Notes: generated from the sequence alone by a model not told the origin. Shown: positions 4,924 to 25,636, numbered from the stretch's first letter. The stretch: 64,000 nt of DNA from Candidatus Micrarchaeota archaeon (GCA_041305385.1 JBFYLO010000053.1:265-64264); one strand, 5' to 3'. Numbers and translations: made by a program.

Positions 4924-4969
4924 CTCGCTCGGTCCGGGTCTGGCGTTTCGAGGCGTCTGGGCTCGCGAG
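4924..4969. repeat. Short GC-rich dispersed repeat, copy A (similar to 31037-31084)
   Basis: CTCGCTCGGTCCGGG...TTTCGA...GGG.CTCGCGAG aligns colinearly by eye with the 31037-31084 intergenic sequence. Confidence 0.35.
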
Positions 4970-5001
4970 GTACGAATCGAGTTGCATTATTTCCTGGGGC
5001 A

Positions 5002-5967
5002 CTATAAGTGCGGGAGAAGAAGGTACTTGTGTATCCTGTAAACTCTCAGGGCGGAATAGTCGCTTATTATGTCCGAGAACTCGTTCGTCAGTTCCATCAT
5101 GAGTTTTCGGTATTCCTCCGGGTCCTTCACTTCGATGTCGAGCTCGAGGTCCCAGGGGCCGAGAGTTTTAATCATGTAGACGATGTTCGGGTGGCGCCTG
5201 CAATACTCATGCAAGCTCTTTTCCCTCTTTTCGCTTAGATTGCTCAGGTAGAACAGCACTTTATGGTGGAACTGGCCGATTACATTGTGGTCCAGCATCA
5301 CAGTGTAACCCCTTATCACCCCGGTTCGCTCCATTTCGGCAATCCTCTTCCTCGCAGTTTCCGGGGATATGCCAACTCTTCTCGCAATGGTCGTTGTTTC
5401 GGTCCTTGAACTCTCGCACAGGATTCCGAGTATCCCCATATCTATGGCGTCAACCCTCCCCTTACCCATCCCGGCGTAGTAACTGACCTCCACCGGCTCC
5501 TTTTTTCCAGTAAGATATCCGCGAATCAGGTACTCCCCAACTAGGTTGACCGATATCGTTTTCTTGATTATCTGGTTCCAGTATTTCTTTGTGAAATCGG
5601 TCAAAACCCTGTTCAGCGTAAACAGGTCCTCAACGAGCATCGTGAATCCCAAGTCGAACTCGCCATCCGTGCTGACAACCCAATTAACATAGGGTGCGTT
5701 GATGAGGTAGTTGATGATTTCCTGCTTTCTCTTCTCGTTGGCGTTCCTCAGCTTTATGAGTATCTTGTAGTACGAGACCCCCAGCTTCGAGGAGTCGAGT
5801 ATCGTGAAGAACCGAAAGATGACCCCTTCCTTCACGAGCCGGTTCAGGCGGTATTTTGCGACCTCCTTGCTCATTCCGGCTCTCTTCGCGAGCGCCGTTA
5901 TCGGCCTCCTGGAGTTAATGTCCAGCTCGTGGAGCAGCGCCCTGTCTTTTGCGTCCAGTTTAAACAT
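5002..5967 (-). CDS. Tandem (double) Lrp/AsnC-family transcriptional regulator
   Basis: Two HTH plus RAM units: 'LDAKDRALL.EL..NSR..IT.LAK..G.S.E...YRL.RL...GVI' and 'IDM.IL..L....R......IA...G.SPET...RI..ME..GVI'. Confidence 0.93.
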   Translation of the reverse strand: MFKLDAKDRALLHELDINSRRPITALAKRAGMSKEVAKYRLNRLVKEGVIFRFFTILDSSKLGVSYYKILIKLRNANEKRKQEIINYLINAPYVNWVVSTDGEFDLGFTMLVEDLFTLNRVLTDFTKKYWNQIIKKTISVNLVGEYLIRGYLTGKKEPVEVSYYAGMGKGRVDAIDMGILGILCESSRTETTTIARRVGISPETARKRIAEMERTGVIRGYTVMLDHNVIGQFHHKVLFYLSNLSEKREKSLHEYCRRHPNIVYMIKTLGPWDLELDIEVKDPEEYRKLMMELTNEFSDIISDYSALRVYRIHKYLLLPHL

Positions 5968-11950: not shown

Positions 11951-12184
11951 TGGGCCCGAGGAGATTTATTCCCGAACCCCATCAGTTTTTCTTTTGGGGT
12001 GTTGAGAGACCTTTTCTTTTTCTGAAGGAAAAGTTGTCAACAACTTTTCCTGTATTTGGGCGTCAGCCCAAATCTGAAAAGAAAAGGGATTTCATTGAAC
12101 TCCTGACCTACAGCTTGCCTAGATACGTTGTATTAGAACGCGTCGTATAAGACTGCCGCTCTAACCTAGCTGAGCTACGGGCCC
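11951..12184 (-). tRNA. tRNA-Ile(UAU) with a 37/38 intron (12116-12145, 30 nt) and a T-loop 59/60 intron (11965-12093, about 129 nt)
   Basis: Acceptor GGGCCCG/CGGGCCC+A; D arm; anticodon stem GCAGT/GCTGT with loop CU-UAU-A|A; BHB with central helix CUUA/UAGG; T stem AGGAG/CTCCT split by an insert. Confidence 0.88.
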
Positions 12185-12225
12185 ACCAAGATTAGTTGGG
12201 AAATCAAATATTAAAAATGAATCGC

Positions 12226-12603
12226 TCAGCTGCGGCCGGGTTTTCTACTCTCGAGGTAAGCCGGGTAGGAGTCCGCAGTGGCAATTGCGAGGCCGAATAT
12301 CGCTATGAGTGCATAGGTCATCTGGAACTCAACACCCGCGAGGACGAGGAACAGGAGCACAGGCAGTAATGCGAGCCAGCCGTATTCGAACATGTTTGAT
12401 TGGTAGCCCAAGGCCCAGCGTTTCAGCAGCAGAAACAGCGGATACACGAACAGGGCGAGGGCCCACGGGAGCATGAGCGACATGGAATAGACGGACTTGT
12501 CCAAAAACGGAGATATGAGGAGCGGGATAAACAGGATGAAGTAAGGAACCGCCCGGTATGGATGTGCGTTTTCCTCCTTTTTCAAGTAATCCCCGGTTAA
12601 CAT
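12226..12603 (-). CDS. Hypothetical membrane protein (about 4 TM segments)
   Basis: Several hydrophobic segments in a 125-aa ORF. Confidence 0.7.
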   Translation of the reverse strand: MLTGDYLKKEENAHPYRAVPYFILFIPLLISPFLDKSVYSMSLMLPWALALFVYPLFLLLKRWALGYQSNMFEYGWLALLPVLLFLVLAGVEFQMTYALIAIFGLAIATADSYPAYLESRKPGRS

Positions 12604-12624
12604 ACGAAGATATCTTTATTATTC

Positions 12625-13305
12625 TTAGGCTCGCGCGTTTTCTCTCTTTGCTATTGCTACAAGAAGGTCCAGAAGCTCGATTGTCTTTTCTGTGGTTATT
12701 TTGGGATAATCGAAACCGAATCTGCCCTTCGTGTTTATCCAGAGGTACAGTCTGGAGTTTTTAACCTCAATGAACGCAACAGGGTTCTCCGTGCGTTTTA
12801 ACACTGCAGTCACGTCGTTTCTCTTGCAGAATGATTTCGCCTCTTCAAGACTTTCACTCGCCAAAAAAAGATTTCCGATGTTCTTCCCAGGATGACCGAG
12901 AATTTGGAGTAAGGCGCCCGTGGAGTTCCGGAGATTGTCGCCAGAATCACTTAAGTGGCACTGCATCCAGAATGGAAAGTTAACAGCGAGCGAGATTCTG
13001 AAGCTGGCATATTTTACGCTCACCAATTGACCTGCCACACGAAAATCTTCGATAAGAACCGGGATTCCCTTGTATGTGGTTGAGAGACTTTCAACCGAAT
13101 CGCCGTTCAACACAAGCCTTAATGAAGCAGTTAATGCGTCAGTTTCCTCTCTCCTACCGCCGATGGTGGCTTGGAGTTTTTTGAAGACATTGCCGAAAGG
13201 TCTTTGGAAGTTTACGTAGATGGCAAAAGCTTTTAGGAGATAAATCACGAGTCCGATTAGCAAAAGACAGAGAAGAGCAGCGAGTAATTGCCCGAGAACA
13301 TCCAT
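12625..13305 (-). CDS. Hypothetical protein with an N-terminal membrane anchor
   Basis: 226-aa ORF with a hydrophobic N-terminus. Confidence 0.65.
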   Translation of the reverse strand: MDVLGQLLAALLCLLLIGLVIYLLKAFAIYVNFQRPFGNVFKKLQATIGGRREETDALTASLRLVLNGDSVESLSTTYKGIPVLIEDFRVAGQLVSVKYASFRISLAVNFPFWMQCHLSDSGDNLRNSTGALLQILGHPGKNIGNLFLASESLEEAKSFCKRNDVTAVLKRTENPVAFIEVKNSRLYLWINTKGRFGFDYPKITTEKTIELLDLLVAIAKRENARA

Positions 13306-13358
13306 GATTAATAGAGCACTCGATATCTTTATTATTCTTTCAACCCTTCTTTTACCTC

Positions 13359-14684
13359 ATGGACTTGGGAGCAGGCCTTCGAAAAGCTCTTGCGAAGATT
13401 ACCGGCGCAGCCCTAGTTGACGAGAAAGCAGTCAAGGAACTGGTGAAAGAGCTCCAGCGAGTCCTCATAGCCAACGATGTCGAGGTAAAGCTTGTTTTCG
13501 AGCTCTCGAAAAGAATCGAGAAGGAAGCGACTGACAGGAAGCAGATGAAGGGCCTCAACGTCAAGGAGCACGTGGTGAAAGTCGTCTATGACGAGCTGGT
13601 CGCATTAATGGGGGAGAAGCATTCCCCGAAAATCCAGAAGCAGAGAATCCTCCTCCTCGGGCTCTACGGCTCGGGAAAGACTACGACTGTCGGAAAGCTC
13701 GCCCACTTTTATAAGAAATCTGGCTTGAGCGTAGGTGTTGTCTGCTGCGATGTGGACAGGCCCGCAGCCTACGAGCAGCTGCAGCAGATTGCCGAGGGAG
13801 CGAAAGTCAATTTCTACGGGGAGAAGGGAGGCAAGGACGCGAGAAAGATTGCCGAGAGGGCCCTCAAGGAATCAAAGGAGGACGTGCTCATAGTCGACTC
13901 CGCAGGCAGGAACGCTTTCAGCGACGAATTGAAGGAGGAGCTCAAGGGCATTGACGGGGCCCTGAAGCCGGACGAGCGGTTCCTGGTTGTGAGCGCGGAC
14001 ATAGGGCAGGTGGCAGGAAGGCAGGCGAAGGAATTCAACTCAGCGGTCCCGGTAACGGGAGTGATAATAACAAAGATGGACGGGAGCGGAAAAGGCGGAG
14101 GGGCACTGAGCTCAGTCGGGGCCACTGGAGCGAAGGTCGCATTCATCGGAGTCGGGGAGAAAGTCGGCGACTTCGAGCCATTCGACGCGAAGAAATACGT
14201 CGGAAGGCTCCTGGGATTCCCTGATTTGGAAAGCCTAATTGAAAAGGTGAAAGAGGTAAGCGAGCAGGAGAATCTCAAGCCCGAGATGCTCGAGGAAAAG
14301 TTCACCATAAAGACATTCTACGAGCAGCTGAGGGCAGCCAAGAAGCTCGGCCCGCTCAAGAGCGTCTTTTCGATGCTCGGCATGGTCGACGTTCCAAAGG
14401 AGATGATGGAGCAGAGCGAGCAGAAGCTCAAGGCCTACGAGGTCATAATCGGCTCGATGACCAAGGCGGAGAGGGAGGATGCCGACCTGCTAAGGAAGAA
14501 CAAAAGCAGGATTGAGCGGATAGCGAAAGGCTCGGGCACCAGGCCCGAAGACGTCCGCGAACTCCTCACCCGCTTCGGGCAGATGGAGAAGATGCTCACC
14601 CAGTTCAAGCACAACCGGGGCTTCAGGAAAAAGATGGAGCATTTCATGAAGAAGGGCGGAGGGGCGAACCTTCCCCTAGGCTGA
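13359..14684 (+). CDS. srp54: Signal recognition particle 54 kDa protein
   Basis: 'GLYGSGKTTT', 'DVDRPAA.EQL', 'DSAGR', 'TKMDGSGKGGGALS' and a Met-rich M domain. Confidence 0.97.
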   Translation: MDLGAGLRKALAKITGAALVDEKAVKELVKELQRVLIANDVEVKLVFELSKRIEKEATDRKQMKGLNVKEHVVKVVYDELVALMGEKHSPKIQKQRILLLGLYGSGKTTTVGKLAHFYKKSGLSVGVVCCDVDRPAAYEQLQQIAEGAKVNFYGEKGGKDARKIAERALKESKEDVLIVDSAGRNAFSDELKEELKGIDGALKPDERFLVVSADIGQVAGRQAKEFNSAVPVTGVIITKMDGSGKGGGALSSVGATGAKVAFIGVGEKVGDFEPFDAKKYVGRLLGFPDLESLIEKVKEVSEQENLKPEMLEEKFTIKTFYEQLRAAKKLGPLKSVFSMLGMVDVPKEMMEQSEQKLKAYEVIIGSMTKAEREDADLLRKNKSRIERIAKGSGTRPEDVRELLTRFGQMEKMLTQFKHNRGFRKKMEHFMKKGGGANLPLG

Positions 14685-14686
14685 TT

Positions 14687-15823
14687 CTACCAATAGCCGC
14701 TGATGAACGAATGGTCTATCCCTATCACATCGAGCTCTGCGCACACTGCCGGGACCCCGAGGAGATTGGAGATGTTCGGCTTGGTCCTCCCGCCGTCTCC
14801 CGAGATGAACTCCTTCACATAAGTGCCCGAATCCGTATCGATGATTAGTTGGAAGGTATTCCCGCTAATCCTTTCGCAACTCCTTATTCTCACCGACCTA
14901 ATCCTCTCGAGGTCCGAGCGCCTGTGGAGAACCCTGTTCGGGGTCTGCTGCTTCAGCTCCATCCTCCTCGGGATTCTTGCGAGCATTTTTTCCGGGAACG
15001 GCTCGGCCGTCTGCACGAGAGCGCGATAGGATTTCCCGAGCCTCGCAACCTTGACGATTTCCACCATTCTCGGGGGAACGAATGAAAGCCGGGACAGTTC
15101 CACTTTGCCAGAAAGCTCTGAATTAATCGAATTCTCAAGAGGGCCCAGGTCCACGTCCCTCCTCATCGGCTCCTCCAGCTCGATGACAAACGGCCTCCCA
15201 TCCCCCAGCATCCTTGCGTCTATGTCCTCCCTGCCTGCCCCGTGGAATTTCGAGTTTCTCGCCTTGAAAGCCTTGAGCAGGGGCTTTGAGACGAGGTCCT
15301 CGACCGAGGAATACTTGAACAGCGTTCCCCCGCAGAGCTCGCACCCGTTCTTGCAGTCGCAGGGCCACTTCGTCTGGGAGAGGTCCCTTGAGAACTTCCT
15401 GTAATGCCCATAAAGAAAGAGGGGCGAGATGGACACCCCCGCTCTGTTCTCCTCGAAATCAAGAAGTATGTTTATATCAGGGGAATCGGGCGAGAACTCC
15501 TTCCCAAGCTCCTTCTTGAGTACGCTCGCAAGATCCGAGTTCAATTCCGTCTTCAGGGACAGCGCCCCCGAGACCCCGTTTCTGTCCCAGAGCGCCTCCT
15601 CCCCAAGCTCGAATTCCCTGGGAATTTTCGAAGAGACCGAGAAACTCGAGAACCCTATGCCCGAGCACTGGATTTTTGCGAGCTTAATGAGGGATTCTAT
15701 CCTTTCGAAAATTTTGTTGTGGCAGACCGAGCACTCGCCCCCCGAGGATTTCGTTTTGTTCCTCTCTGCGCACCGCCTGCACAGGCCTTTACTCGAATGA
15801 AATCGAGACTTCAACAGTGTCAC
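14687..15823 (-). CDS. pus10: tRNA pseudouridine 54/55 synthase Pus10
   Basis: N-terminal Cys cluster, 'G.YRKFSR.LSQT.W', 'FHGAGREDIDARMLG.GRPFV', 'QQTP.RVLHRR' and 'GTYVKEFISGD.GRT.P'. Confidence 0.95.
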   Translation of the reverse strand: MTLLKSRFHSSKGLCRRCAERNKTKSSGGECSVCHNKIFERIESLIKLAKIQCSGIGFSSFSVSSKIPREFELGEEALWDRNGVSGALSLKTELNSDLASVLKKELGKEFSPDSPDINILLDFEENRAGVSISPLFLYGHYRKFSRDLSQTKWPCDCKNGCELCGGTLFKYSSVEDLVSKPLLKAFKARNSKFHGAGREDIDARMLGDGRPFVIELEEPMRRDVDLGPLENSINSELSGKVELSRLSFVPPRMVEIVKVARLGKSYRALVQTAEPFPEKMLARIPRRMELKQQTPNRVLHRRSDLERIRSVRIRSCERISGNTFQLIIDTDSGTYVKEFISGDGGRTKPNISNLLGVPAVCAELDVIGIDHSFISGYW

Positions 15824-16451
15824 CGTCCTTCAGCCTTAGCGCCTTCCTTAGATTCACCCTGGAGATTACCTCGAGGACATCGAGCCCGTAGTGGGAGCGG
15901 GAGGGCAGAATCGTGAATCCCTTCAGCTTTTTGTTTATGACTGATGGGAAGCATTTTATCGCCCCGAGGAAGCGTCCCTGGTGCTGGAATCCCTCTATGA
16001 CAACTCCCCTGCGGTCTGCCAGGATCAGCTTCGCTTCCATGTCCTGAATCCTCAGGTTGAGGGTTCCGGGAAACGGCCTGATTCCGAGCTTGTCTTTGAA
16101 TTGCCTGTTGTATTCCGGGAGCGGGACGTAATACTTCCCCTCCTTCATCCCAGTAATCACAGTTCCCCTTACCTTCAGGCTCTTTCTCGACTCCAGGGCA
16201 GCCTCGAGGGTTTCGCAAAGCGCCCTGAGCTCTGCCAGTGATTTGCCCGTGAGCCTCAAACCATTGAGGTCCCGCTCGACAAACCCCTCCAGCTGGGCCC
16301 TGATGAGCCACCTTGAGGCAGTCTGCTGGGAGACTCCAAGAAGGGAAGCGAGCTCGCCCGTGGAGACCCGGACGTGCCTCTCATGGGCGCCAGCCTTAAG
16401 CAGAGAGAACAGCAGCGGATGGTTCATTCCCATATTTGGGTTATTACCCAC
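15789..16451 (-). CDS. ribK: HTH-fused CTP-dependent riboflavin kinase (RbkR type)
   Basis: N-terminal wHTH 'ELA..LG.SQQTASR' plus 'G.V.TG..EG.YY', 'PFPGTLN' and 'EVIS...LR..L.L.DGD.V'. Confidence 0.93.
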   Translation of the reverse strand: MGNNPNMGMNHPLLFSLLKAGAHERHVRVSTGELASLLGVSQQTASRWLIRAQLEGFVERDLNGLRLTGKSLAELRALCETLEAALESRKSLKVRGTVITGMKEGKYYVPLPEYNRQFKDKLGIRPFPGTLNLRIQDMEAKLILADRRGVVIEGFQHQGRFLGAIKCFPSVINKKLKGFTILPSRSHYGLDVLEVISRVNLRKALRLKDGDTVEVSISFE

Positions 16452-16532
16452 CTAAGCGATTTAAACCCTTTCGTAGGGAGTTTCTCCCCAGGAGAGATAG
16501 GTTTATGAGATTGGCCGCGCAAGAACAGTATC

Positions 16533-16593
16533 GCCTGTGACGATATGAACAACCGCTGAGCTATGCTTTGATGAGGCTGACAGAATCTGAGGC
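16533..16593 (+). ncRNA. Box C/D 2'-O-methylation guide sRNA
   Basis: C box GTGACGA (16537-16543), 12-nt guide, D' CTGA (16556-16559), C' TGATGA (16569-16574), 12-nt guide, D CTGA (16587-16590) and a GCC/GGC terminal stem; intergenic. Confidence 0.8.
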
Positions 16594-16601
16594 AATTATA
16601 A

Positions 16602-17312
16602 TTAACAGGTCGTTCGCAAGTTTTTCTTGTTTACATCGGCCGTCTGTCTACCCCGCCGTGTTAACAAGAATATTCTCCTTCCCTCGTTGAGCTCCTGGCC
16701 AGTTGGCCTGGCTTTCATGTCGTTCGAAGTTTTTATCCCACAATTAAAAGTCAACTCGGGGCCCTTTTTTAGCCTTCGGCTTTCTGGTCCGGACTTACTG
16801 GTCTTAGTGTCAGAACTATCAGGATGCTCAACTGAAGCAGGCATGTGGTCCCACGGGTTGTGTGATACGTCAATTGGGCCCGAAGCAGGTGAAAAAGTCT
16901 GCCTTCGCGCTTCTCCGTACTGGGGGCTAGAGGACCCTGGGACACCGTTCGATTTGCCGCCGAACGTGTTTTCGCCATCATTCTTGTGCACGACATCATA
17001 TCCTATCATGATTGCTTGCGTTGGGAATGATACCCCCACCCATAAGCCATCCCAAAAATTCTTTTGGTCCTCCTGCCCCCGTTCGGAATGTTTGGTCACC
17101 TCGTTATAAATCCCCGCAGGGATACCTATACAAATTGTCGAAACAAATGTCGTTAAGGCGTAGAGTGTTGCAGCCCCAGCCAAAACTGCAGCCAACATCT
17201 TCGTAGTCGGCATTAACATGTTTAAAAAAAGACCATAAAACTTGTTAAAAGTCCACTTTATTGCTCTAACAATGAAACCTGGTTTTTGATCTTCTGACAT
17301 GTCCCATATCAC
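16602..17312 (-). CDS. Hypothetical protein with an N-terminal hydrophobic segment and a low-complexity tail
   Basis: 236-aa ORF; no family recognised. Confidence 0.55.
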   Translation of the reverse strand: MIWDMSEDQKPGFIVRAIKWTFNKFYGLFLNMLMPTTKMLAAVLAGAATLYALTTFVSTICIGIPAGIYNEVTKHSERGQEDQKNFWDGLWVGVSFPTQAIMIGYDVVHKNDGENTFGGKSNGVPGSSSPQYGEARRQTFSPASGPIDVSHNPWDHMPASVEHPDSSDTKTSKSGPESRRLKKGPELTFNCGIKTSNDMKARPTGQELNEGRRIFLLTRRGRQTADVNKKNLRTTC

Positions 17313-17471
17313 CCTATCATTTTCTTTAGACTCTAATTTTATATCCTATGGCTCAATTAGCTCTAGCCTAACCACGCTAACCCCACCATACTTATGCCCT
17401 AACCCCTATAAAAAGGTTTCGCTTTTTGTGGAAGTCGAGTTAATATAAAGATTAAGTGACTAACTCCATTC

Positions 17472-17816
17472 ATGAAGCAGGTAATAGTCACGAGAAGCGA
17501 CCTTAAGCTGGGCAAGGGCAAGCTCGCAGCCCATGTGGCCCACGCCTCGCTCGAGGGTTACAAGAGGGCGAAGGAGAAGGACCCCGGTGCAGTGGAGGAG
17601 TGGGAGCGCGAGGGGCAGAGGAAGATAGTGGTCAAGGTGAACACCGAGAAGGAGATGCTCGAGCTTTTCGAGAGGGCGAAGAGAACGGTCCCATGTGCAT
17701 TGATTAGGGACGCCGGGCTTACGCAGATTGAGCCTGGAACGCTCACATGCATAGCAATCGGGCCTTGGAAGGATGAGGAAGTGGACAAGTTCACGAATGA
17801 GCTGAAGCTCCTATGA
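17472..17816 (+). CDS. pth2: Peptidyl-tRNA hydrolase Pth2
   Basis: 'KQVIV.R.DLKLGKGKLAAHVAHASL', 'GQRKIVVK' and 'DAG.TQIEPGT.T..AIGP'. Confidence 0.97.
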   Translation: MKQVIVTRSDLKLGKGKLAAHVAHASLEGYKRAKEKDPGAVEEWEREGQRKIVVKVNTEKEMLELFERAKRTVPCALIRDAGLTQIEPGTLTCIAIGPWKDEEVDKFTNELKLL

Positions 17817-17855
17817 GCCACATGAATATTTAAAATAACCTGCCAAATACCTTCG

Positions 17856-20450
17856 ATGGAAGCCCCAGAATTCTGGAAAAAGAGAATCGACGACCTTTAT
17901 TCCGAACTTTCGACATCCTCATTCGGCCTGAGCACGAAGGATGCGAAAGAGAGGCTCGCGAAGCAGGGGCGCAACGAGATTCCGGACAAGGACAAGAAGG
18001 AGTGGCTCGACATACTAATCTCCCAAATCAAGAGCCCTTTCCTCCTCATACTCATATTCGCCTCAATAGTTTCCGGCTACCTCGGCCTCTCCTCAATCAT
18101 GGCCGGGGGCCCATTGGAAGAGATATCGGATACGGCCATAATACTCCTGATTGTAGTCGCCAGCGTTGCTCTCGGCTTCTTCCAGGAATACAAGTCCGAG
18201 AAGGTTTTGACAGAGCTCAAGAAATATTTCACCTATCACGCAGTTGTCCTCAGGGACGGCGAGAAGGGGCAGGTGGACTCGAGGGAGCTGGTGCCCGGGG
18301 ACGTCGTTTTCGTGGGGCTCGGCGACATCGTTCCAGCTGACCTCCGGCTCATCGAGACGAGCGGGATTCTCGCGAACGAGTCTTTGCTGACCGGCGAATC
18401 GAGAGAAGTGAGAAAGGACGCGGACGCAAGCCCTGGCTCCGGGGCGAACCCCCAGGACATCGGCAACGGGCTCTTCATGGGCAGCACCGTGGTCGAGGGA
18501 TACGCGAAATGCCTGGTGATTGCGACAGGGCAGAACACTTTCTTCGGGAAAACTGCGAGCGTCTTCAGCTTGAAGGTCCCGGAGACAGACTTCCAGACAG
18601 GCATACGGAAGTTCGGGGACATGGTAATCCGCGTCATAGTGGTCATGACGCTATTGGTGTTCTTCTTCAACATACTGGGCGGGAGGAACTCGATTGCGGA
18701 CTCGGCGCTCTTCGCCCTCGCGCTTGCCGTCGGAGTTGCCCCCGAGGCCCTTCCCGCAGTCATAACCGTCACGCTCTCAACCGGGAGCATGCACCTTGCG
18801 AAGAAGAAGGTCATCACGAAGAAGCTCGCCGCCATAGAGGACCTCGGGAACATGGACGTCCTTTGCACGGACAAGACGGGCACACTGACCGAGGAAAGCC
18901 TTAGGATGGACAAATACGTGGACCTGGACAAGAGGGACAGCCACGACGTGTTCCAGTATGCTCTTCTCTGCAACTCCGCAGTCGGGACCGGCAACCACAT
19001 AAAGGGAAACGCAATCGATGTCGCCATAGCGAAAAGGGGGCATTCCCTCAAGACTGACCTCTCGCACTTCAAGAAAATCCAGGAGATACAGTTCGACTTC
19101 AACAGGCGCCGCATGAGCCAGGTCGTGCAGGAGGGCAGGAAGAGATATCTAGTTGTGAAGGGCGCCCCCGAGTCGGTAATTTCCATTTGCACAAAGGTGA
19201 GGACAAGCTCGAAGCTTTACAGCATTTCTGAAAAGGAGTCAGAGATCAAGGAGATGATTGCCTGCTACAACCGGGAAGGCCACAGCACCATTGCAATCGC
19301 CTACAAGGACATTGACAGCAAGGCCGCCTACTCCAAAGATGACGAGAAAGACATGGTTTTCATCGGCTTCGTGCTCTTCAGCAACCCCCCCAAGCCGACA
19401 GTCCGCATGACTCTCGAAAGGCTCAAGAAGCTGAACATACGGCTGAAGGTCCTCACCGGCGACGACCCGCTCGTGACAAAGAAATTGTGCTCGGAGGTCG
19501 GGTTCGAGCCGGCTGAAGGGAGAATCGTGCTTGGGAGCGAGCTGCGGGCCATGAATCCTGAGGAATTCTCGGAAGCAGCCCAAAAATTCGATGTCTTTGC
19601 GAGAGTGGCGCCGGACCAGAAGCTCGCAATTGTCGAGGCCCTCCGGGCGAAGGGGCATGTGGTGGGATTCATGGGCGACGGGATAAACGACGCGCCCGCC
19701 CTGAGGACCGCCGATGTCGGCATTTCCGTCAACACCGCAGCTGACGTCGCCAAGGGGGCTTCCCACATAATCCTTCTCAAGAAGAGCTTGGGGGTAGTCT
19801 GCGACGGAGTAGAAGAGGGCAGGAGGATTTTCGGCAACATAACGAAGTACATCCACATGGTGATAAGCGCGAACAACGGGAACATGGCGACCGTGGTCAT
19901 CTCGTCCATATTCCTTCCTTTCATTCCGATGCTCCCCACCCAGATTCTTCTCAACAACCTCGTAGCGGACCTGCCGATGCTCTCCATTGCCGGCGACAAC
20001 GTGGACAAGGAATACTCGGAAAGGCCGCGCAAGTGGAACATCGGTTTCATCGTCAAGTTCATGCTCTTCTTCGGGTTCATAAGCACTTTCTTCGACCTTC
20101 TCCTAATCGGCATAATGTATTTCGTGCTGCACAGCGGGGCGGGCGCTTTCAGGACGGCTTGGTTCGTGGAGTCGCTTCTCTCGGAGATAATGCTCATATT
20201 CTCGCTGAGGACAAGCCTGCCCTTCTTCAGGAGCATGCCTTCGCACCTGCTTGCGCTAAGCTCGGTTGCCGCGGGAATTATCGCCTTGGCGGTGGTTTAC
20301 GTAGGCCCAATTGCCAACCTCTTCCAGTTCGAGCCCCTGGGGACGGACCTCATCCTAACTATTGCAGGAATCCTCGTGCTCTACTTCATTGCAGCCGAAC
20401 TGGGGAAGGTAGTTTTCTACAAAAAGATAGCGACTGCAAAAGACGAGTGA
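17856..20450 (+). CDS. mgtA: P-type ATPase, Mg2+-transporting MgtA-like
   Basis: TGES, 'PEALP', DKTGT phosphorylation site, FDF.RRRMS, KGAPE, TGD and 'GDGINDAPAL'; 'TQIL.NN...D' in the membrane domain. Confidence 0.88.
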   Translation: MEAPEFWKKRIDDLYSELSTSSFGLSTKDAKERLAKQGRNEIPDKDKKEWLDILISQIKSPFLLILIFASIVSGYLGLSSIMAGGPLEEISDTAIILLIVVASVALGFFQEYKSEKVLTELKKYFTYHAVVLRDGEKGQVDSRELVPGDVVFVGLGDIVPADLRLIETSGILANESLLTGESREVRKDADASPGSGANPQDIGNGLFMGSTVVEGYAKCLVIATGQNTFFGKTASVFSLKVPETDFQTGIRKFGDMVIRVIVVMTLLVFFFNILGGRNSIADSALFALALAVGVAPEALPAVITVTLSTGSMHLAKKKVITKKLAAIEDLGNMDVLCTDKTGTLTEESLRMDKYVDLDKRDSHDVFQYALLCNSAVGTGNHIKGNAIDVAIAKRGHSLKTDLSHFKKIQEIQFDFNRRRMSQVVQEGRKRYLVVKGAPESVISICTKVRTSSKLYSISEKESEIKEMIACYNREGHSTIAIAYKDIDSKAAYSKDDEKDMVFIGFVLFSNPPKPTVRMTLERLKKLNIRLKVLTGDDPLVTKKLCSEVGFEPAEGRIVLGSELRAMNPEEFSEAAQKFDVFARVAPDQKLAIVEALRAKGHVVGFMGDGINDAPALRTADVGISVNTAADVAKGASHIILLKKSLGVVCDGVEEGRRIFGNITKYIHMVISANNGNMATVVISSIFLPFIPMLPTQILLNNLVADLPMLSIAGDNVDKEYSERPRKWNIGFIVKFMLFFGFISTFFDLLLIGIMYFVLHSGAGAFRTAWFVESLLSEIMLIFSLRTSLPFFRSMPSHLLALSSVAAGIIALAVVYVGPIANLFQFEPLGTDLILTIAGILVLYFIAAELGKVVFYKKIATAKDE

Positions 20451-20457
20451 AAAAGTG

Positions 20458-20702
20458 TGCCAAGGGCGGGATTTTCAAGAACCCCGAGTTTCGAAACTCG
20501 AGTCGTTTTTCTTCTGGGGCGCGCCCGTTTTTCTTTGGGACGCCACGAGACCTTTCTTTTTTAAAAAGAAAGGGATTGTGTTTGAACCCGCGACTTCCAG
20601 ATTACACCTGAATGGGTGATGTTAATCATCGCCTTTTGGCTCATCACTCAAAAAGCTAAGCTTATGAGTCTGGCACTCTAAACCAAGCTGAGTTACCTTG
20701 GC
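20458..20702 (-). tRNA. Elongator tRNA-Met(CAU) with a 37/38 intron (20603-20662, 60 nt) and a T-loop 59/60 intron (20472-20580, 109 nt)
   Basis: Acceptor GCCAAGG/CCTTGGC+A; anticodon stem CCAGA/TCTGG with CU-CAU-A; T-loop BHB with central helix UUCA/UGAA and bulges AAC/AAU. Confidence 0.92.
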
Positions 20703-20764
20703 ACGGGGTTATTTAGGGTCGAAAGGTTAAAAATAGTGTCCTTTGCTAATTCTAGTTGGGGGGA

Positions 20765-21469
20765 ATGGCTATGGAAGTTGAGAAAGTTTCTACTGGAATA
20801 GACGGTCTCGACGTCATGCTCAAGGGCGGTTTCGAGAAGAACAGCATAGTGCTCATCTCGGGAGACCCGGGTGCTGGAAAGACTACGTTCGGCCTGCAAT
20901 ACCTTTACCACGGGGCGACCAAGCACAAGCAGCCGGGCGTCCTCATCTCTTTCGAAGAGCCCATGGACATGATTTACAAGCATGCGGCCCAGTACGGATG
21001 GGACTTGAAGAAGCTCGAGCACGAAAAGAGCTTCAGGATTGTGGATGCGAGGAGCCTTAAGGCCGAGACCTTGTTCCACATCGATGTCGGGATGACGTTC
21101 GACACCATAAAGAGCATCGGCGCAAAAAGAGTCGTCATAGACTCGCTCACCGCCTATTCGCTCCTTTTCGAGAACGCCTACAAGCAGAGGATTGCGCTCA
21201 GGGAGCTCTTCGAATCCCTCAGAAAGCTCGGCTGCACCACCATCATGATTAATGAGTACAGCAAGCACTACAGCGCCCACCCGCTCATCGATTTCCTTGC
21301 TGATGAGCTGATTATGCTCTACAACCGCAGGATAAAGAACAACAGGGTAAGGGGCATCGAAGTCATAAAGGCGAGGGGCATAGACCACGTGGACAAGCCG
21401 GCCCCCATCATCTTCGGAAAGAACGGCGTGGAAGTATATCCAGAGAACCCGCTCTTTGACCAGTTCTAA
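20765..21469 (+). CDS. KaiC/RAD55-like (RecA superfamily) ATPase
   Basis: 'STGIDGLD.ML.GG', Walker A SGDPGAGKT, 'RVVIDSLT' and 'R...EVIKARG'. Confidence 0.92.
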   Translation: MAMEVEKVSTGIDGLDVMLKGGFEKNSIVLISGDPGAGKTTFGLQYLYHGATKHKQPGVLISFEEPMDMIYKHAAQYGWDLKKLEHEKSFRIVDARSLKAETLFHIDVGMTFDTIKSIGAKRVVIDSLTAYSLLFENAYKQRIALRELFESLRKLGCTTIMINEYSKHYSAHPLIDFLADELIMLYNRRIKNNRVRGIEVIKARGIDHVDKPAPIIFGKNGVEVYPENPLFDQF

Positions 21470-21481
21470 ACTGGTTTTCGC

Positions 21482-21727
21482 ATGAAACCAACAGACAAAT
21501 TTATAGCCGGAGCTGCAGGGCTCGTTATTTGCGTGGCAGTATTCTTTTTCGATGTGGCCACAGGTGGTTCGCCCGCAGGGTTTGCGATAGCACTCTGTTC
21601 TGCCATATTCTCCTTCGTCATGGGAATCCTGTTGTTTCTTGACAAACAGAAAAAAGGACTTGTTTTAAGCGCCATAAGCGGGGCAATCGCGATTTTTATG
21701 GTTTTACTTTTCTCGGGTATGGTATAA
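21482..21727 (+). CDS. Small membrane protein (about 3 TM segments)
   Basis: Strongly hydrophobic 81-aa ORF. Confidence 0.6.
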   Translation: MKPTDKFIAGAAGLVICVAVFFFDVATGGSPAGFAIALCSAIFSFVMGILLFLDKQKKGLVLSAISGAIAIFMVLLFSGMV

Positions 21728-21752
21728 TCGTTCGAGCTAAAAACAAGAAATA

Positions 21753-22000
21753 TCGAGTGGAGGGCCATAGCCTGCCTTTTGTTTTCAGCAGCATTCGACT
21801 AAGCGGCCCAAAGCCTTGCATCGCACATCCCGCTTCCGGGCGGGTCGTTTCACCTGCGCCTTCCCCGTCTCATTGCTTCATCCTCATCCGGGAAAGGGAG
21901 TTCGTTTCTGTTCCCGCCTCGGGCCTTAAACCCAAGGAAGCTTTCGCGATGGGCAGAGCTTCCTCCCGCTTTCACGGGTGACTGCCGGCCCCCCACTCGA
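21753..22000 (-). ncRNA. rnpB: RNase P RNA, compact form (about 248 nt)
   Basis: P1 helix TCGAGTGGGGGGCC/GGCCCTCCACTCGA; P4 strands GAGGAAGCTCTGCC and AACAAAAGGCAGGCTAT; conserved AACAGAAAC, TGCAAG and CCGCTTAGTCGAATGC; upstream TATA-like sequence. Confidence 0.92.
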
Positions 22001-22049
22001 AAGGATTGCTCAGCCTGGGTTTAAGAATTTATGGGGCGATTTATAACCG

Positions 22050-22370
22050 ATGAAAAAAGGGGCCCTTTTACTCCTGGCAATGCTTCTCGCCGGCTGCTCC
22101 GGAATCTGGCAGCCTGGGGCCGGGCATGGAGGGATAAACCTTAACGCGATTTGCGACAAGCCGTACCCCGGGGACCAGGAAGGAGGACGGGTGGTCGGGG
22201 TTTTCAAGTGCGAGGACTACTACCGGCTTGTGTTCGACTCCCCGGGCCATTTCGAATATTACATAACTGCGAAGGAGGAATTCGTGGCCTCTTGCCCAGC
22301 CAAGGAGAAGAACTCCGAATGCGAAAGCATGCTCAAGAGCTGTAAGTTCATCAACCTATGCAGGAGCTGA
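22050..22370 (+). CDS. Predicted lipoprotein, Cys-rich
   Basis: Signal peptide with lipobox LAGC and several paired Cys residues. Confidence 0.75.
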   Translation: MKKGALLLLAMLLAGCSGIWQPGAGHGGINLNAICDKPYPGDQEGGRVVGVFKCEDYYRLVFDSPGHFEYYITAKEEFVASCPAKEKNSECESMLKSCKFINLCRS

Positions 22371-22374
22371 TGCC

Positions 22375-22863
22375 ATGGACTCAGGGAATGCCCTCAGAAC
22401 AGTCGCCGAGCTGATGCTGCTCTCGGCGAAGACTGCCCCGAAAGCCCTCGGAAAAGACGCCCTCGTCGCGAAGATAGCGAGCGATAGCGAGAAGGAGCGG
22501 ATAGTCGTCGGGATGGAGAGCATAAAGAGGAAGAACTGGGACAGGGATGCCAAAACAGTGGAGAAAGCAGAACTGCTGGTCCTCATAGGGGTAAAACCTT
22601 CGGATGCTTCCGAGGCCCTCGAGGGAAGAATCGATGTTTCCGAAATCGAGCCGCAGCTCAAGGGGGAAGTCTGCCCCACTAGACTGATCGACCTTGGGAT
22701 TGCCGTTGGCTCTGCGGTGAAAACCGCCTCGCTCCACAACGTTGACAACCGGGTGATGTGGAGGGCAGGGGTCATCGCCGCATCGCTGGGAATTCTTCAG
22801 GGGGCGGTCGTTCTCGCGATTCCGCTCTCAGCTACTGAGAAATCGATATTCTTCGACAGGTGA
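22375..22863 (+). CDS. DUF2148-like (ferredoxin-domain-containing) protein
   Basis: 'A.LM..SAKTAPKA.G.D' and 'DLGIAVGSAVK.AS..NVDNRVM...G'. Confidence 0.82.
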   Translation: MDSGNALRTVAELMLLSAKTAPKALGKDALVAKIASDSEKERIVVGMESIKRKNWDRDAKTVEKAELLVLIGVKPSDASEALEGRIDVSEIEPQLKGEVCPTRLIDLGIAVGSAVKTASLHNVDNRVMWRAGVIAASLGILQGAVVLAIPLSATEKSIFFDR

Positions 22864-22867
22864 GGCA

Positions 22868-23641
22868 TTGGTTTTGAAAATCGGGTTAATCGGCTGCGGT
22901 GCAATCGGAGCAATAATCGGGATAGCGGTTAAAGGGGGGAAGGGCGGAGACGCTAAAATAGCCTCAGTCTTCGACCTGGACTCAGGCAAGGCAAGCGCCC
23001 TCTCCGGAAAAATCGGGGCGCCTGTTGCAAAGAACATTCAAGAGCTAACCCTAAAAAGCGACCTCGTGATTGAATGCGCTTCCCAGGCCGCGGTAAGGGA
23101 GCACGGCCCGAAAGTTGCGGGGAAAAAGGACCTGATGATTCTGAGCATAGGGGCGCTCCTGGACAGGAAACTGCTTGACGAGCTCCTCTCAAAAGCGAAA
23201 AAAGGAAAGAAGAGACTCTACGCCCCCTCCGGGGCGATTTGCGGGCTCGATGGGCTGAAAGGGGCGGGAGTTGGGAAAATCGATTCAGTCCAACTGACCA
23301 CCACCAAGCCGCCGAAAAGCCTTGGCCTCGAAATTTCCGAGAAAAAGGTCATTTTCTCAGGAACTCCGGAGGAAGCGGTCACGAAATTCCCGGCCAACAT
23401 AAATGTCGCCGCAGCCCTCAGGCTGACTGCAGGCAAGGTCCCTGTGAAAGTCGAAATCATCGCCGACCCAGAAGCAAAACTGAACAAGCACGAAATTCTC
23501 GTGAAGGGCGAGTTCGGCGAGCTTCTCACCAGGACCGAGAACCTCCCTTCGAAAGACAATCCCAAGACGAGCGCCCTCGCAGCCATGTCCGCAGTGGCAA
23601 CGATAAAGAGAATGACCGAGACTCTCGTGGTCGGGACCTGA
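22868..23641 (+). CDS. nadX: L-aspartate dehydrogenase
   Basis: 'IGCGAIG', 'VIECASQ.AV', 'S.GAL.D', 'PSGAI.GLD', 'FPANINVAAAL' and 'NPKTSALAA.S'. Confidence 0.95.
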   Translation: MVLKIGLIGCGAIGAIIGIAVKGGKGGDAKIASVFDLDSGKASALSGKIGAPVAKNIQELTLKSDLVIECASQAAVREHGPKVAGKKDLMILSIGALLDRKLLDELLSKAKKGKKRLYAPSGAICGLDGLKGAGVGKIDSVQLTTTKPPKSLGLEISEKKVIFSGTPEEAVTKFPANINVAAALRLTAGKVPVKVEIIADPEAKLNKHEILVKGEFGELLTRTENLPSKDNPKTSALAAMSAVATIKRMTETLVVGT

Positions 23642-23665
23642 AGTAATACTATAGAAAAAAAGACG

Positions 23666-23856
23666 TGGACCCGAGGGGAATTTCAAGTCCCAAACCGTTT
23701 TTCTTTTGGGACACGTCCATTTTTTCTTTGGACGCCACGAGACCTTTCTTTTTCTTAAAAAGAAAGGGATTGTGTTTTGAACCCCTGGCCTTCCGCATTT
23801 TGGAAACCTAAAAGTGTTTGCGCCAAGCGGACGCGCTACCGCTGCGCTACGGGCCC
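23666..23856 (-). tRNA. tRNA-Ala(GGC) with a 37/38 intron (23798-23820, 23 nt) and a T-loop 59/60 intron (23680-23775, 96 nt)
   Basis: Acceptor GGGCCCG/CGGGTCC+A with the G3:U70 Ala determinant; anticodon BHB with central helix UUGG/CCAA; T-loop BHB with central helix UUCA/UGAA. Confidence 0.93.
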
Positions 23857-24248: not shown

Positions 24249-24965
24249 ATGAAAATTACAACAAGCCTAAAAGGATACATTGACGAAGGAAAGCTCGTCG
24301 ACTTCGGGGTTCTGAATAGCCTGGGGCTCACCTCGGAGAATTCCCTTCGGGTGACCCTGGCGAGGCTTGTGAAAAAGGGAGAAATCTACAGCCCGCTGAA
24401 AGGGCTTTATGCATCCAAGGGGGCCGACCCGTTCTGGGCAGCCACGGCAATCTTCCCGGGGTACATCTCGCTCACTTCCGCGCTCTATCTCCGCCACCTC
24501 AGCGACGAATACCCGTTCACAATTTTCGTCGGCTCCGAGAAGAGAAAAAAACTGAAAATGGGAAACTGCGAGATTCATTATTTCGTGGCTAAAAGTTACG
24601 GGGGACTGGAACGTGGCCAATACCCGGTCGCTTCAGTTGAAAAGGCGATTTATGACTCCCTCTTGCATCCGGAACTGGTCGGCTACCCGAAAATCACAAA
24701 AGCCCTGCACTTCGCGCCGGTAACAGCAAGGAAATTCATCTCCCTGTGCAGGAATGAGCGAAATGCGTTCTTCCAGAGGCTCGGCTACCTTCTCTCAATC
24801 CTCCCGGGGCTGGACAAGGAAAAAGAGAATCTGTTGAAATACTGCAGAAAAAGAACGAAGGCGAACGTTTATCTGCAAGGGCGGAAAACCGGGAAATACG
24901 TCCCGGAGTGGAAAATAATCGACAATCTGGGAAAGGAGGTGCTCCTCTCATGGTGGGAACAATAG
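24249..24965 (+). CDS. Type IV toxin-antitoxin antitoxin, AbiEi-like
   Basis: N-terminal wHTH 'LARLVKKG.I....KGLY', 'GYISL.SAL', 'VAS.EKAIYD' and 'QRLGYLL'. Confidence 0.85.
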   Translation: MKITTSLKGYIDEGKLVDFGVLNSLGLTSENSLRVTLARLVKKGEIYSPLKGLYASKGADPFWAATAIFPGYISLTSALYLRHLSDEYPFTIFVGSEKRKKLKMGNCEIHYFVAKSYGGLERGQYPVASVEKAIYDSLLHPELVGYPKITKALHFAPVTARKFISLCRNERNAFFQRLGYLLSILPGLDKEKENLLKYCRKRTKANVYLQGRKTGKYVPEWKIIDNLGKEVLLSWWEQ

Positions 24966-25636
24966 CGTTTGGGGAAAACGACCTGAAAGCCTATGCGGCG
25001 AAGGCAGGCCTCGGGCTGCAATTCATAGTGAAAGAGGCCTTTCTTTTCGAACTGATGGAACTCCTAGGCGAGCACGAATTCGTTTTGAAAGGCGGGACTG
25101 CGATAAACAAGGGGTATCTGGAAGGCCATCAGAGATTCTCTGAGGACCTCGATTATGACACCGAACTTGGGAAGGAGGGCGTCAGAAAGGCCCTCGCAGG
25201 ACTCGGCTGGAAGATAGGAAAGGAATTTTTCACGAGAAATTCGCTCGGCTTCCTCTTCGAGTATAGCTTTGGCGGAGTGAAGGACGCTGTGAAAGCCGAG
25301 TTTTCTTTCGGGATAAACGGGGCCGCTGAAAGGAGAAAGGCGGTTTCGGATTTCCTTCCAGTTTCAAAAAGGGTCGAGATGTATGTTTTTCCGGAGCTCA
25401 ACCGCCAGAAGGAACTCGCCTTTGGGCAAAGGAAGGAGTGGAAGGACCTCTATGACCTTTATTGGATGCAGGAGCTTTACCCCAAGGAATTCAAAATACG
25501 GGGCAGGAAGGCGTTTCAGGAAGCAATCTCCTCAATGAGCATCCAAAAAACCGCGAATGCTTACATACCGCGGGCAAAGAGACTAAATTGGGAAGAAGTC
25601 AGGGAATACATGTCAAGCAAATGGCCGAACAAATAA
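24950..25636 (+). CDS. AbiEii-like nucleotidyltransferase toxin
   Basis: 'VLKGGTAINK.YL..HQRFSEDLDY' and 'KDLYDLY'; start refined to ATG 24950, overlapping the antitoxin. Confidence 0.9.
   Translation: MVGTIAFGENDLKAYAAKAGLGLQFIVKEAFLFELMELLGEHEFVLKGGTAINKGYLEGHQRFSEDLDYDTELGKEGVRKALAGLGWKIGKEFFTRNSLGFLFEYSFGGVKDAVKAEFSFGINGAAERRKAVSDFLPVSKRVEMYVFPELNRQKELAFGQRKEWKDLYDLYWMQELYPKEFKIRGRKAFQEAISSMSIQKTANAYIPRAKRLNWEEVREYMSSKWPNK

Follow-up and report, generated by a model that had tools for sequence, protein, structure and literature searches.

We analysed a stretch of 64,000 nucleotides from a Candidatus Micrarchaeota archaeon (GCA_041305385.1, JBFYLO010000053.1:265-64264), here called the window, in which three tRNA genes each carry a long insert in the T-loop. 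A structural scan that looked for an acceptor stem, U8/A14, a D-stem and a T-stem followed by TTCRA, with inserts of any kind allowed, found exactly three tRNA genes, all on the minus strand. ARAGORN made no tRNA call on the unspliced 64 kb, and the sole Rfam match at gathering score in the same sequence was the archaeal RNase P RNA; it is because of the double introns that both methods miss all three genes. After removal of the introns, ARAGORN recognised tRNA-Ile(TAT), tRNA-Met(CAT) and tRNA-Ala(GGC) with normal cloverleaves, and the tRNA-Ala exons hold the G3:U70 identity pair. Each gene contains one intron at position 37/38 (30 nt in Ile, 60 nt in Met and 23 nt in Ala) and one T-loop insert at 59/60 (129, 109 and 96 nt, respectively), as listed in Table 1.

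An earlier note on this DNA, made from the sequence alone, had described the three long inserts together with a separate 37/38 intron in each gene, and its insert boundaries were exact. The common 59/60 site that it assigned to them stands for Met and Ala, but the Ile junction can equally be written as 58/59. Its account of the likeness among the inserts also holds in outline: the first ~50 nt of the Met and Ala inserts are identical save for a 1-nt loop indel, and a hairpin (hairpin 1), then TCTC, then an A-rich run are common to Ile, Met and Ala. Two of these elements are better described in other terms, namely TCTC as one strand of an internal loop of 2x2 pyrimidines, which is conserved and lies above a co-varying helix, and the A-rich run as a mirror of the purine strand of hairpin 1.

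Table 1. Features of the window, numbered from its first nucleotide; Y, pyrimidine arm and R1, purine arm of hairpin 1; R2, third element; CM, covariance model of the core.
Feature	Position	Strand	Remarks
tRNA-Ile(UAU) gene, two introns	11951-12184	-	structural scan; ARAGORN tRNA-Ile(tat) once spliced
Ile T-loop intron, 129 nt, A4-type module	11965-12093	-	fold z = -5.5; CM 34.9 bits
Ile hairpin 1, Y (CCCUUUUCUUUU)	12077-12088	-	
Ile hairpin 1, R1 (AAAAAGAAAAGG)	12010-12021	-	
Ile R2 (AAAAGAAAAA)	11986-11995	-	mirror of R1
Two perfect nested hairpins in the loop of Ile hairpin 1	12027-12073	-	12054-12073 and 12027-12050
Ile 37/38 intron, 30 nt	12116-12145	-	canonical hBHBh'
tRNA-Met(CAU) gene, two introns	20458-20702	-	structural scan; ARAGORN on spliced form
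Met T-loop 59/60 intron, 109 nt, A3-type module	20472-20580	-	CM 60.4 bits
Met hairpin 1	20551-20574	-	Y 20563-20574; R1 20551-20562
Met R2 (AAAGAAAAAC)	20527-20536	-	mirror of R1
Met second A-rich run	20505-20515	-	3' of matched R2
Met 37/38 intron, 60 nt	20603-20662	-	unrelated to module
tRNA-Ala(GGC) gene, two introns	23666-23856	-	G3:U70; structural scan; ARAGORN on spliced form
Ala T-loop 59/60 intron, 96 nt	23680-23775	-	CM 60.3 bits; fold z = -4.9
Ala hairpin 1	23743-23768	-	Y 23757-23768; R1 23743-23753
Ala R2 (AAAGAAAAAA)	23720-23729	-	mirror of R1
Ala A4-type run, candidate relic	23697-23707	-	3' of matched R2
Ala 37/38 intron, 23 nt	23798-23820	-	strict hBHBh'
Candidate archaeal box C/D small RNA	16533-16592	+	sub-threshold Rfam match to sR14, 24.5 bits, E = 0.004
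Archaeal RNase P RNA	21755-21998	-	101 bits
Open reading frame, possible antitoxin	24249-24965		no Pfam match
AbiEii-type nucleotidyltransferase toxin domain gene	24908-25636	+	~1 kb from tRNA-Ala
Suggested cell-surface glycan locus	35499-62322		

The archaeal splicing endonuclease cuts after the second nucleotide of each of two 3-nt bulges that flank a 4-bp helix, the bulge-helix-bulge (BHB) motif. The T arm and the anticodon arm have the same geometry, 5 bp in the stem and 7 nt in the loop, so that 59/60 in the former corresponds exactly to 37/38 in the latter. We found that the Met T-loop intron forms a nearly strict motif, GGG-TTCA-AAC-ACA ... TCT-TGAA-AAT-CCC, with 3/3 pairs in the outer helix h1, 4/4 in the central helix H and 2/3 in h2, and that the Ala intron forms a relaxed helix-bulge-helix (hBH) with 4/4 pairs in H, correct 3-nt bulges and 0/3 pairs in the adjacent h2. 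The pairing of T-loop UUCA with intron UGAA, proposed in the earlier note for these two genes, therefore exists with the 3-nt bulges expected of it, and it co-varies across the family to which the inserts belong. Among 18 module-bearing T-loop introns from different assemblies, the central helix is complete in 13 and has 3/4 pairs in a further 3; TTCG faces CGAA in 3/3 cases and TTCA faces TGAA or TGGG, which indicates that the intron tail co-varies with the exon.

From these motifs we infer that the inserts are spliced. Each T-loop intron is made up of a short 5' spacer, the core module kept by the family, further hairpins that may be absent, and a 3' tail with complementarity to nucleotides 54-57 of the T-loop. 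In the mechanism that we propose, the tail would prolong the T-stem into a helix-bulge-helix, or a full helix-bulge-helix-bulge-helix (hBHBh'), so that the 59|60 bonds fall in 3-nt bulges open to the endonuclease, and ligation of the RtcB type would then join the exons and probably circularise the intron. Archaeal BHB introns are in general released as circles. A suitable enzyme is documented for related organisms: the epsilon2 endonuclease of ARMAN-2 (Micrarchaeota) cleaves a relaxed 59/60 intron, of the same hBH type as that of Ala, in vitro (PMC3239211), and broad-range splicing endonucleases are documented in Micrarchaeota and other DPANN archaea (PMC3239211, PMC5829648).

Two observations at the locus speak against splicing. 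No splicing endonuclease or RtcB-type ligase is present among the 50 open reading frames (ORFs) scanned in the window, and the Ile T-loop intron lacks a canonical BHB, with 1/4 central pairs in the strict register; its best relaxed reading pairs TTCA with GGGA at 3/4 positions and leaves bulges of 2 and 6 nt. The Ile intron is also what could be expected if the three genes were decaying, unspliced pseudo-tRNAs with disruptive insertions, an explanation that we regard as very improbable. Once spliced, the cloverleaves are perfect and keep their identity elements, G3:U70 among them; changes in the T-loop are matched by changes in the BHB helices; and dozens of tRNA genes are built in the same way. 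In addition, contig L003, which bears the label Candidatus Micrarchaeota and shares synteny with the window, has exactly the same Met and Ala exons, whereas the neighbouring genes share only 73-81% nucleotide identity, and this invariance argues against pseudogenes. Misassembly, which the earlier note had named as a possible source of the identity between inserts, is excluded by the recurrence of the same architecture in many independent assemblies.

The distribution of the module was examined by pattern scans of genomes and metagenomes. With one genome per GTDB species, the pattern AAAARRAAAGGTCTC-N6-20-AAAGAAAAA gave 22 matches, ~13 of which are true copies of the module. Every true copy lies in an archaeal metagenome-assembled genome (MAG), under the labels Micrarchaeota, Iainarchaeum, Aenigmatarchaeota, 'Nanobdellati' and unclassified archaeon; the other matches arose by chance, mostly in bacterial coding sequence, and include two archaeal contigs, one labelled Woesearchaeota. 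ARMAN-2 was not among the genomes matched. The metagenome scan used the hairpin pattern only, leaving the downstream elements outside the query, and among the matches listed there are many further copies in tRNA genes that show the same downstream elements. A covariance model (CM) of the core was then built from 48 copies. In the window it recovers only the three introns, apart from opposite-strand readings of the same hairpins and others beginning at E>0.06, and in the first 100 loci it finds ~60 good matches, with at most 5 per contig. The family suggested by the earlier note is thus found in DPANN contigs of Micrarchaeota, Iainarchaeota, Aenigmatarchaeota and others, with a ~45-nt core kept across phyla in introns of 57-179 nt.

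We found no match to the window introns in Rfam 15 at gathering score or E<=5, nor to the module in 12 related loci, in keeping with the earlier note, which did not recognise the family, and no description of this intron family in the literature; the family is apparently undescribed. What appears to be new is a structured core that is common to several DPANN lineages, occupies many kinds of site in both orientations and shows covariation among three strands. Carriage by viruses was not borne out, as scans of IMG/VR contigs revealed no complete module (L026 has a mismatched type) and a looser pattern returned 84 chance matches there.

The sites occupied are more diverse than a family of T-loop introns would imply. 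A host tRNA could be assigned for 30 copies, of which 14 lie at 59/60 in the T-loop, 11 at other sense positions including the D-loop and 37/38, and 5 in antisense orientation; 4 of these 5 share their intron with a sense copy. Single tRNA genes may hold 2-4 copies (L002, L045, L048, L068 and L075), and sense and antisense copies of different subtypes are mixed within introns of L045, L048, L078 and L037. Copies also stand immediately 3' of the tRNA end, in the trailers of L051 and L074, and between protein genes (L007 3944-3994 and L021 92-214); in L021 the antisense reading stops directly upstream of an ATG. The T-runs of trailer and intergenic copies could serve as archaeal terminators. In the Aenigmatarchaeota contig L016 (4629-5140), three copies surround and interrupt a signal recognition particle (SRP) RNA gene: one lies ~50 nt upstream, one interrupts the 5' part of the gene and one lies just past its 3' end. 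The Rfam SRP match covers 4924-5021 only. With the BHB finder, which suffers from noise in A/T-rich sequence, no motif could be placed at this SRP RNA insertion. The earlier note was right about homologous, modular introns at 59/60, but the D-loop, 37/38, trailer, SRP and intergenic copies mean that the family is specific neither to the T-loop nor to introns.

This spread of sites bears on the main rival explanation, which is that the core is a mobile or recombinogenic repeat acting at the DNA level, similar to miniature inverted-repeat transposable elements (MITEs) or repetitive extragenic palindromic (REP) sequences. Such a repeat would insert in either orientation and survive in stable-RNA genes only where its flanks allow the endonuclease to remove it, and the covariation would reflect a single-stranded DNA or an H-DNA-type triplex that is used by a recombinase or promotes recombination. 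The copies in both orientations, the mixed subtypes within introns, the copies in trailers, around the SRP RNA gene and between protein genes, and the presence of several copies per contig all fit this explanation. On the other hand, copies in tRNA genes are biased to the sense orientation (25 vs 5, binomial p ~3e-4), inspection of junctions by eye revealed neither terminal inverted repeats nor target-site duplications, and no transposase, reverse transcriptase or integrase was found among the ORFs scanned in the window. We rate it as rather unlikely on the whole, and the structure of the core, which is described below, adds arguments on both sides.

Hairpin 1 has the form CC(C)-U3-4-C-U4-5 paired with A4-5-G-A3-4-GG, that is, a polypyrimidine arm (Y), a loop and a polypurine arm (R1) joined in 11-12 bp. 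Its pairing reaches 99% in the 48 copies, and its C-G pair stands at either of two adjacent positions with compensatory changes on both strands (29 cells; 0/500 shuffles). Beneath the internal loop to which TCTC belongs, the 5' spacer and the linker build an extension helix. Its pairing reaches 73% in one register, compared with 31-47% in the others, and each column shows 4-5 types of pair, while the same helix (P0) is not significant when sequences are taken one at a time. The linker to the A-rich run (R2) has 9-17 nt and usually ends in CCC(C). The GC stem capped by the A-rich run, as described in the earlier note, is real in the window copies of Met and Ala but is not significant across the family, since only ~10% of 51 copies beat shuffled controls, and it does not belong to the core.

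The relationship between R1 and R2 follows a simple rule. In R1, 3 or 4 As separate the internal G from the basal GG, and in R2 the G is without exception preceded by as many, giving a table of 11/0/0/30 (Fisher p=3e-10), or 8/0/0/24 (p=1e-7) where R2 was unconstrained by the query; as the sequences are phylogenetically related, these p-values overstate independence. With an 8-nt probe taken beside the stem base, the mirror image alone recurs downstream in 33 copies and the direct repeat alone in 3, and viral control loci gave 0/13. Near-identical linkers carry both types (L079 vs L041; L095 vs L144), so the switch between A3 and A4 has happened repeatedly. Rare variants of R1 and R2 all mirror each other over their full length: AAAGAGAAAA / AAAAGAGAAA in L078, AAAGAGAAAG / GAAAGAGAAA in L037, AAAGAAGAAAG / GAAAGAAGAAA in L114, AAAGAAAAG / GAAAAGAAA in L002, AAAAGAAAAAAG / AAAAAAGAAAA in L075 and AAAGAAAGAAAG / AAAGAAAGAAA in L045, the last of which is palindromic save for its terminal G, and thus fits the rule without separating mirror from direct repeats. 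In shorthand, five of them read A3GAGA4/A4GAGA3, A3GAGA3G/GA3GAGA3, A3GA2GA3G/GA3GA2GA3, A3GA4G/GA4GA3 and A4GA6G/A6GA4. Together with the A3 type, at least 7 variants obey the rule.

One way to explain a conserved R2 is a switch in which R2 acts as an alternative Watson-Crick partner of the U-rich arm. This model predicts direct repeats, and we rejected it because the A3-type and the asymmetric variants show mirror repeats. Judged by its sequence, a third strand that mirrors the purine strand obeys the code of a fold-back triplex with an antiparallel purine motif (A.A-U and G.G-C), and the antisense copies, which present the reverse complement, correspond to the classical topology of U.A-U / C+.G-C. 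The core would fold autonomously into a compact three-stranded rod with R2 antiparallel to R1, a structure that would keep the A/U-rich insert from disturbing the folding of the pre-tRNA and that marks the family. The three-strand structure may be formed by the RNA or by the non-template DNA strand, and it could function in intron mobility, in nuclease resistance of the circular RNA, in insulation of pre-tRNA folding or as the scaffold of a stable RNA.

Taken together, we think it probable that the inserts are genuine protein-spliced BHB introns in functional tRNA genes and members of a DPANN repeat family with a three-strand core. A more far-reaching proposal, which we put forward tentatively and with clearly less confidence, is that the core is a natural antiparallel purine-motif RNA triplex of 9-11 layers, and that this triplex defines a mobile family of BHB introns and repeats in tRNA, SRP RNA and intergenic sites of several DPANN lineages. 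Besides the relatedness of the sequences, several points count against the first of these readings. Its triplex would be of the purine motif in the sense copies. Known natural RNA triplex runs are of the pyrimidine motif, A.A-U and G.G-C occur as isolated triples only, and the purine motif is regarded as weak for RNA (PMC7583470). In some copies, including Met and Ala of the window, a tight stem encloses R2 and would hinder a full-length triplex. Finally, 5/30 host-assigned copies are antisense and further copies lie outside introns, observations that a DNA-level element fits at least as well as an RNA-level one. The DNA-level repeat also gains from the fact that purine-motif triplexes are well established for DNA and not for RNA; however, H-DNA needs the R1/R2 mirror alone, and this leaves the Y arm on the same strand unexplained.

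It is also conceivable, as the earlier note had suggested, though unlikely in our judgement, that the excised introns, which are probably circular, are functional stable RNAs and that the core is a platform for protein binding or regulation. The ~45-nt core kept across phyla, the strong folds of the introns (z down to -5.5) and the release of archaeal BHB introns as circles are compatible with such a role. But the closing stems needed to display the A-rich run in a loop lack conservation, the antisense and non-intron copies would give other RNA, and a protein-binding site does not predict mirror covariation.

Comparison of the window with related contigs reveals how the introns turn over. L004 and L010, which are contigs of one MAG, have T-loop introns of 75 nt in two different tRNAs, with one loop base as the sole difference between the introns. 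A core of the window's Met type, with 94% identity, lies in a further tRNA of L015, by eye tRNA-Arg(CCG). The tRNA-Ala of L003 holds the Ile-type intron of the window, including its nested hairpins, with 87% identity over 167 nt, above the identity of the flanking genes. Both of these hairpins, which occupy the loop of Ile hairpin 1, appear to have been inserted into the module secondarily. The Ala intron of the window is a chimera: its 5' half is of the Met type, and its 3' half can be aligned with the intron, of the Ile type, in the tRNA-Ala of L003. Its downstream A-rich run is of the A4 type although the Ala hairpin is of the A3 type, and the alignment of this run with R2 of the Ala intron in L003 is consistent with a remnant of a module that has been replaced. 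The subtype of the L003 intron and the chimera in the window point to intron replacement or partial conversion at the orthologous Ala site. The recent transfer or conversion proposed in the earlier note therefore agrees with the likeness of Met and Ala in the window, with that of L004 and L010, and with the Ile-type intron in L003 Ala. We infer that the family spreads and homogenises among tRNA genes and other sites, and candidate routes are conversion, recombination and reinsertion, the last at the level of either RNA or DNA.

Several known systems resemble this family in part. Similar introns at different tRNA genes and positions within one genome have reportedly been seen in Thermoproteales, where Fujishima and colleagues are said to have interpreted them in 2010 as the result of transposition or gain. 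The same traits of mobility are shared here, namely near-identical introns in different tRNAs (Met and Ala of the window; L004 and L010), copies at several positions of one tRNA and turnover at the orthologous Ala site, whereas the Thermoproteales introns are short and belong to a TACK lineage. We know of no description among them of a cross-phylum structured core, three-strand covariation, or antisense and non-intron copies. Also close are the non-canonical BHB introns of ARMAN-2 and Micrarchaeota (Fujishima et al. 2011, PMC3239211), which share the phylum, the 59/60 site, strict and relaxed BHB motifs, multiple introns per gene and a 37/38 intron in tRNA-Ile(UAU). Introns at 59/60 and endonucleases of broad specificity are thus already known in Micrarchaeota (PMC3239211), but the 59/60 intron described for ARMAN-2 has 13 nt and no conserved internal module was reported, while the introns here have 57-179 nt and a core common to several phyla. 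Heavy disruption of tRNA genes is known for DPANN, in which tRNA sets are not fully predictable (PMC5829648).

With the triple helices of the MALAT1/PAN ENE, telomerase RNA and SAM-II (PMC7583470), the core shares a Y/R duplex and a third strand in a fixed register. The known natural runs are parallel and of the pyrimidine motif (PMC7583470), in contrast to the antiparallel purine-motif run of 9-11 layers predicted for the sense copies, which dominate. Like the archaeal tRNA-Trp intron that contains a box C/D small RNA (sRNA), the family consists of long tRNA introns with a conserved module of presumed function, but the T-loop introns have no C/D boxes, no kink-turn (K-turn) and no Rfam C/D match. 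MITEs, REP sequences and palindromes derived from IS200/IS605 are likewise short, hairpin-centred, multicopy and free of ORFs, with copies in both orientations and between genes; the family differs from them in the lack of terminal inverted repeats or target duplications by eye, the absence of a transposase in the window, and the bias to stable-RNA genes and to the sense orientation.

The family offers a sequence-defined system for the old question of how archaea gain tRNA introns and how these pass from gene to gene, with a three-strand covariation that is unusually clean. A physical triplex formed by the RNA would be the first natural run of the purine motif, and one formed by the DNA would link triplex-forming repeats with the spread of introns. 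As ARAGORN and Rfam miss every tRNA gene of the window and hairpin 1 can be mistaken for an anticodon arm, a model of the intron family would improve tRNA annotation in DPANN. For example, the 'tRNA-Lys(ctt)' called by ARAGORN at L001 2589-2684 (-) takes hairpin 1 as its anticodon arm and is an annotation artefact.

Some further features of the window were noted. The Met 37/38 intron has 58/60 identity with its counterpart in L003, against 73-81% for the flanking genes, and a strict motif was not returned by the BHB finder. The sequence GUGAUGA ... GCC-AAAA-GGC-GAUGA in this intron resembles a K-turn of the L7Ae type or half of a box C/D unit. Elsewhere, on the plus strand, a candidate archaeal box C/D sRNA reads GTGACGA ... 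CTGA ... TGATGAG ... CTGA (Table 1). The RNase P RNA gene lies between the Met and Ala tRNA genes, an order kept in L003. This RNA and the Pfam matches to SRP54, an FtsY-like protein, Pus10 and Kae1 show that the window is archaeal, and the synteny with L003 places its source in Micrarchaeota. Near tRNA-Ala there is a gene with an AbiEii-type toxin domain, and the ORF upstream of it may encode the antitoxin. A long cluster of genes for glycosyltransferases, S-adenosylmethionine (SAM)-dependent methyltransferases, radical-SAM proteins, carbamoyltransferases and a Wzt-like ATP-binding cassette (ABC) transporter suggests a cell-surface glycan locus.

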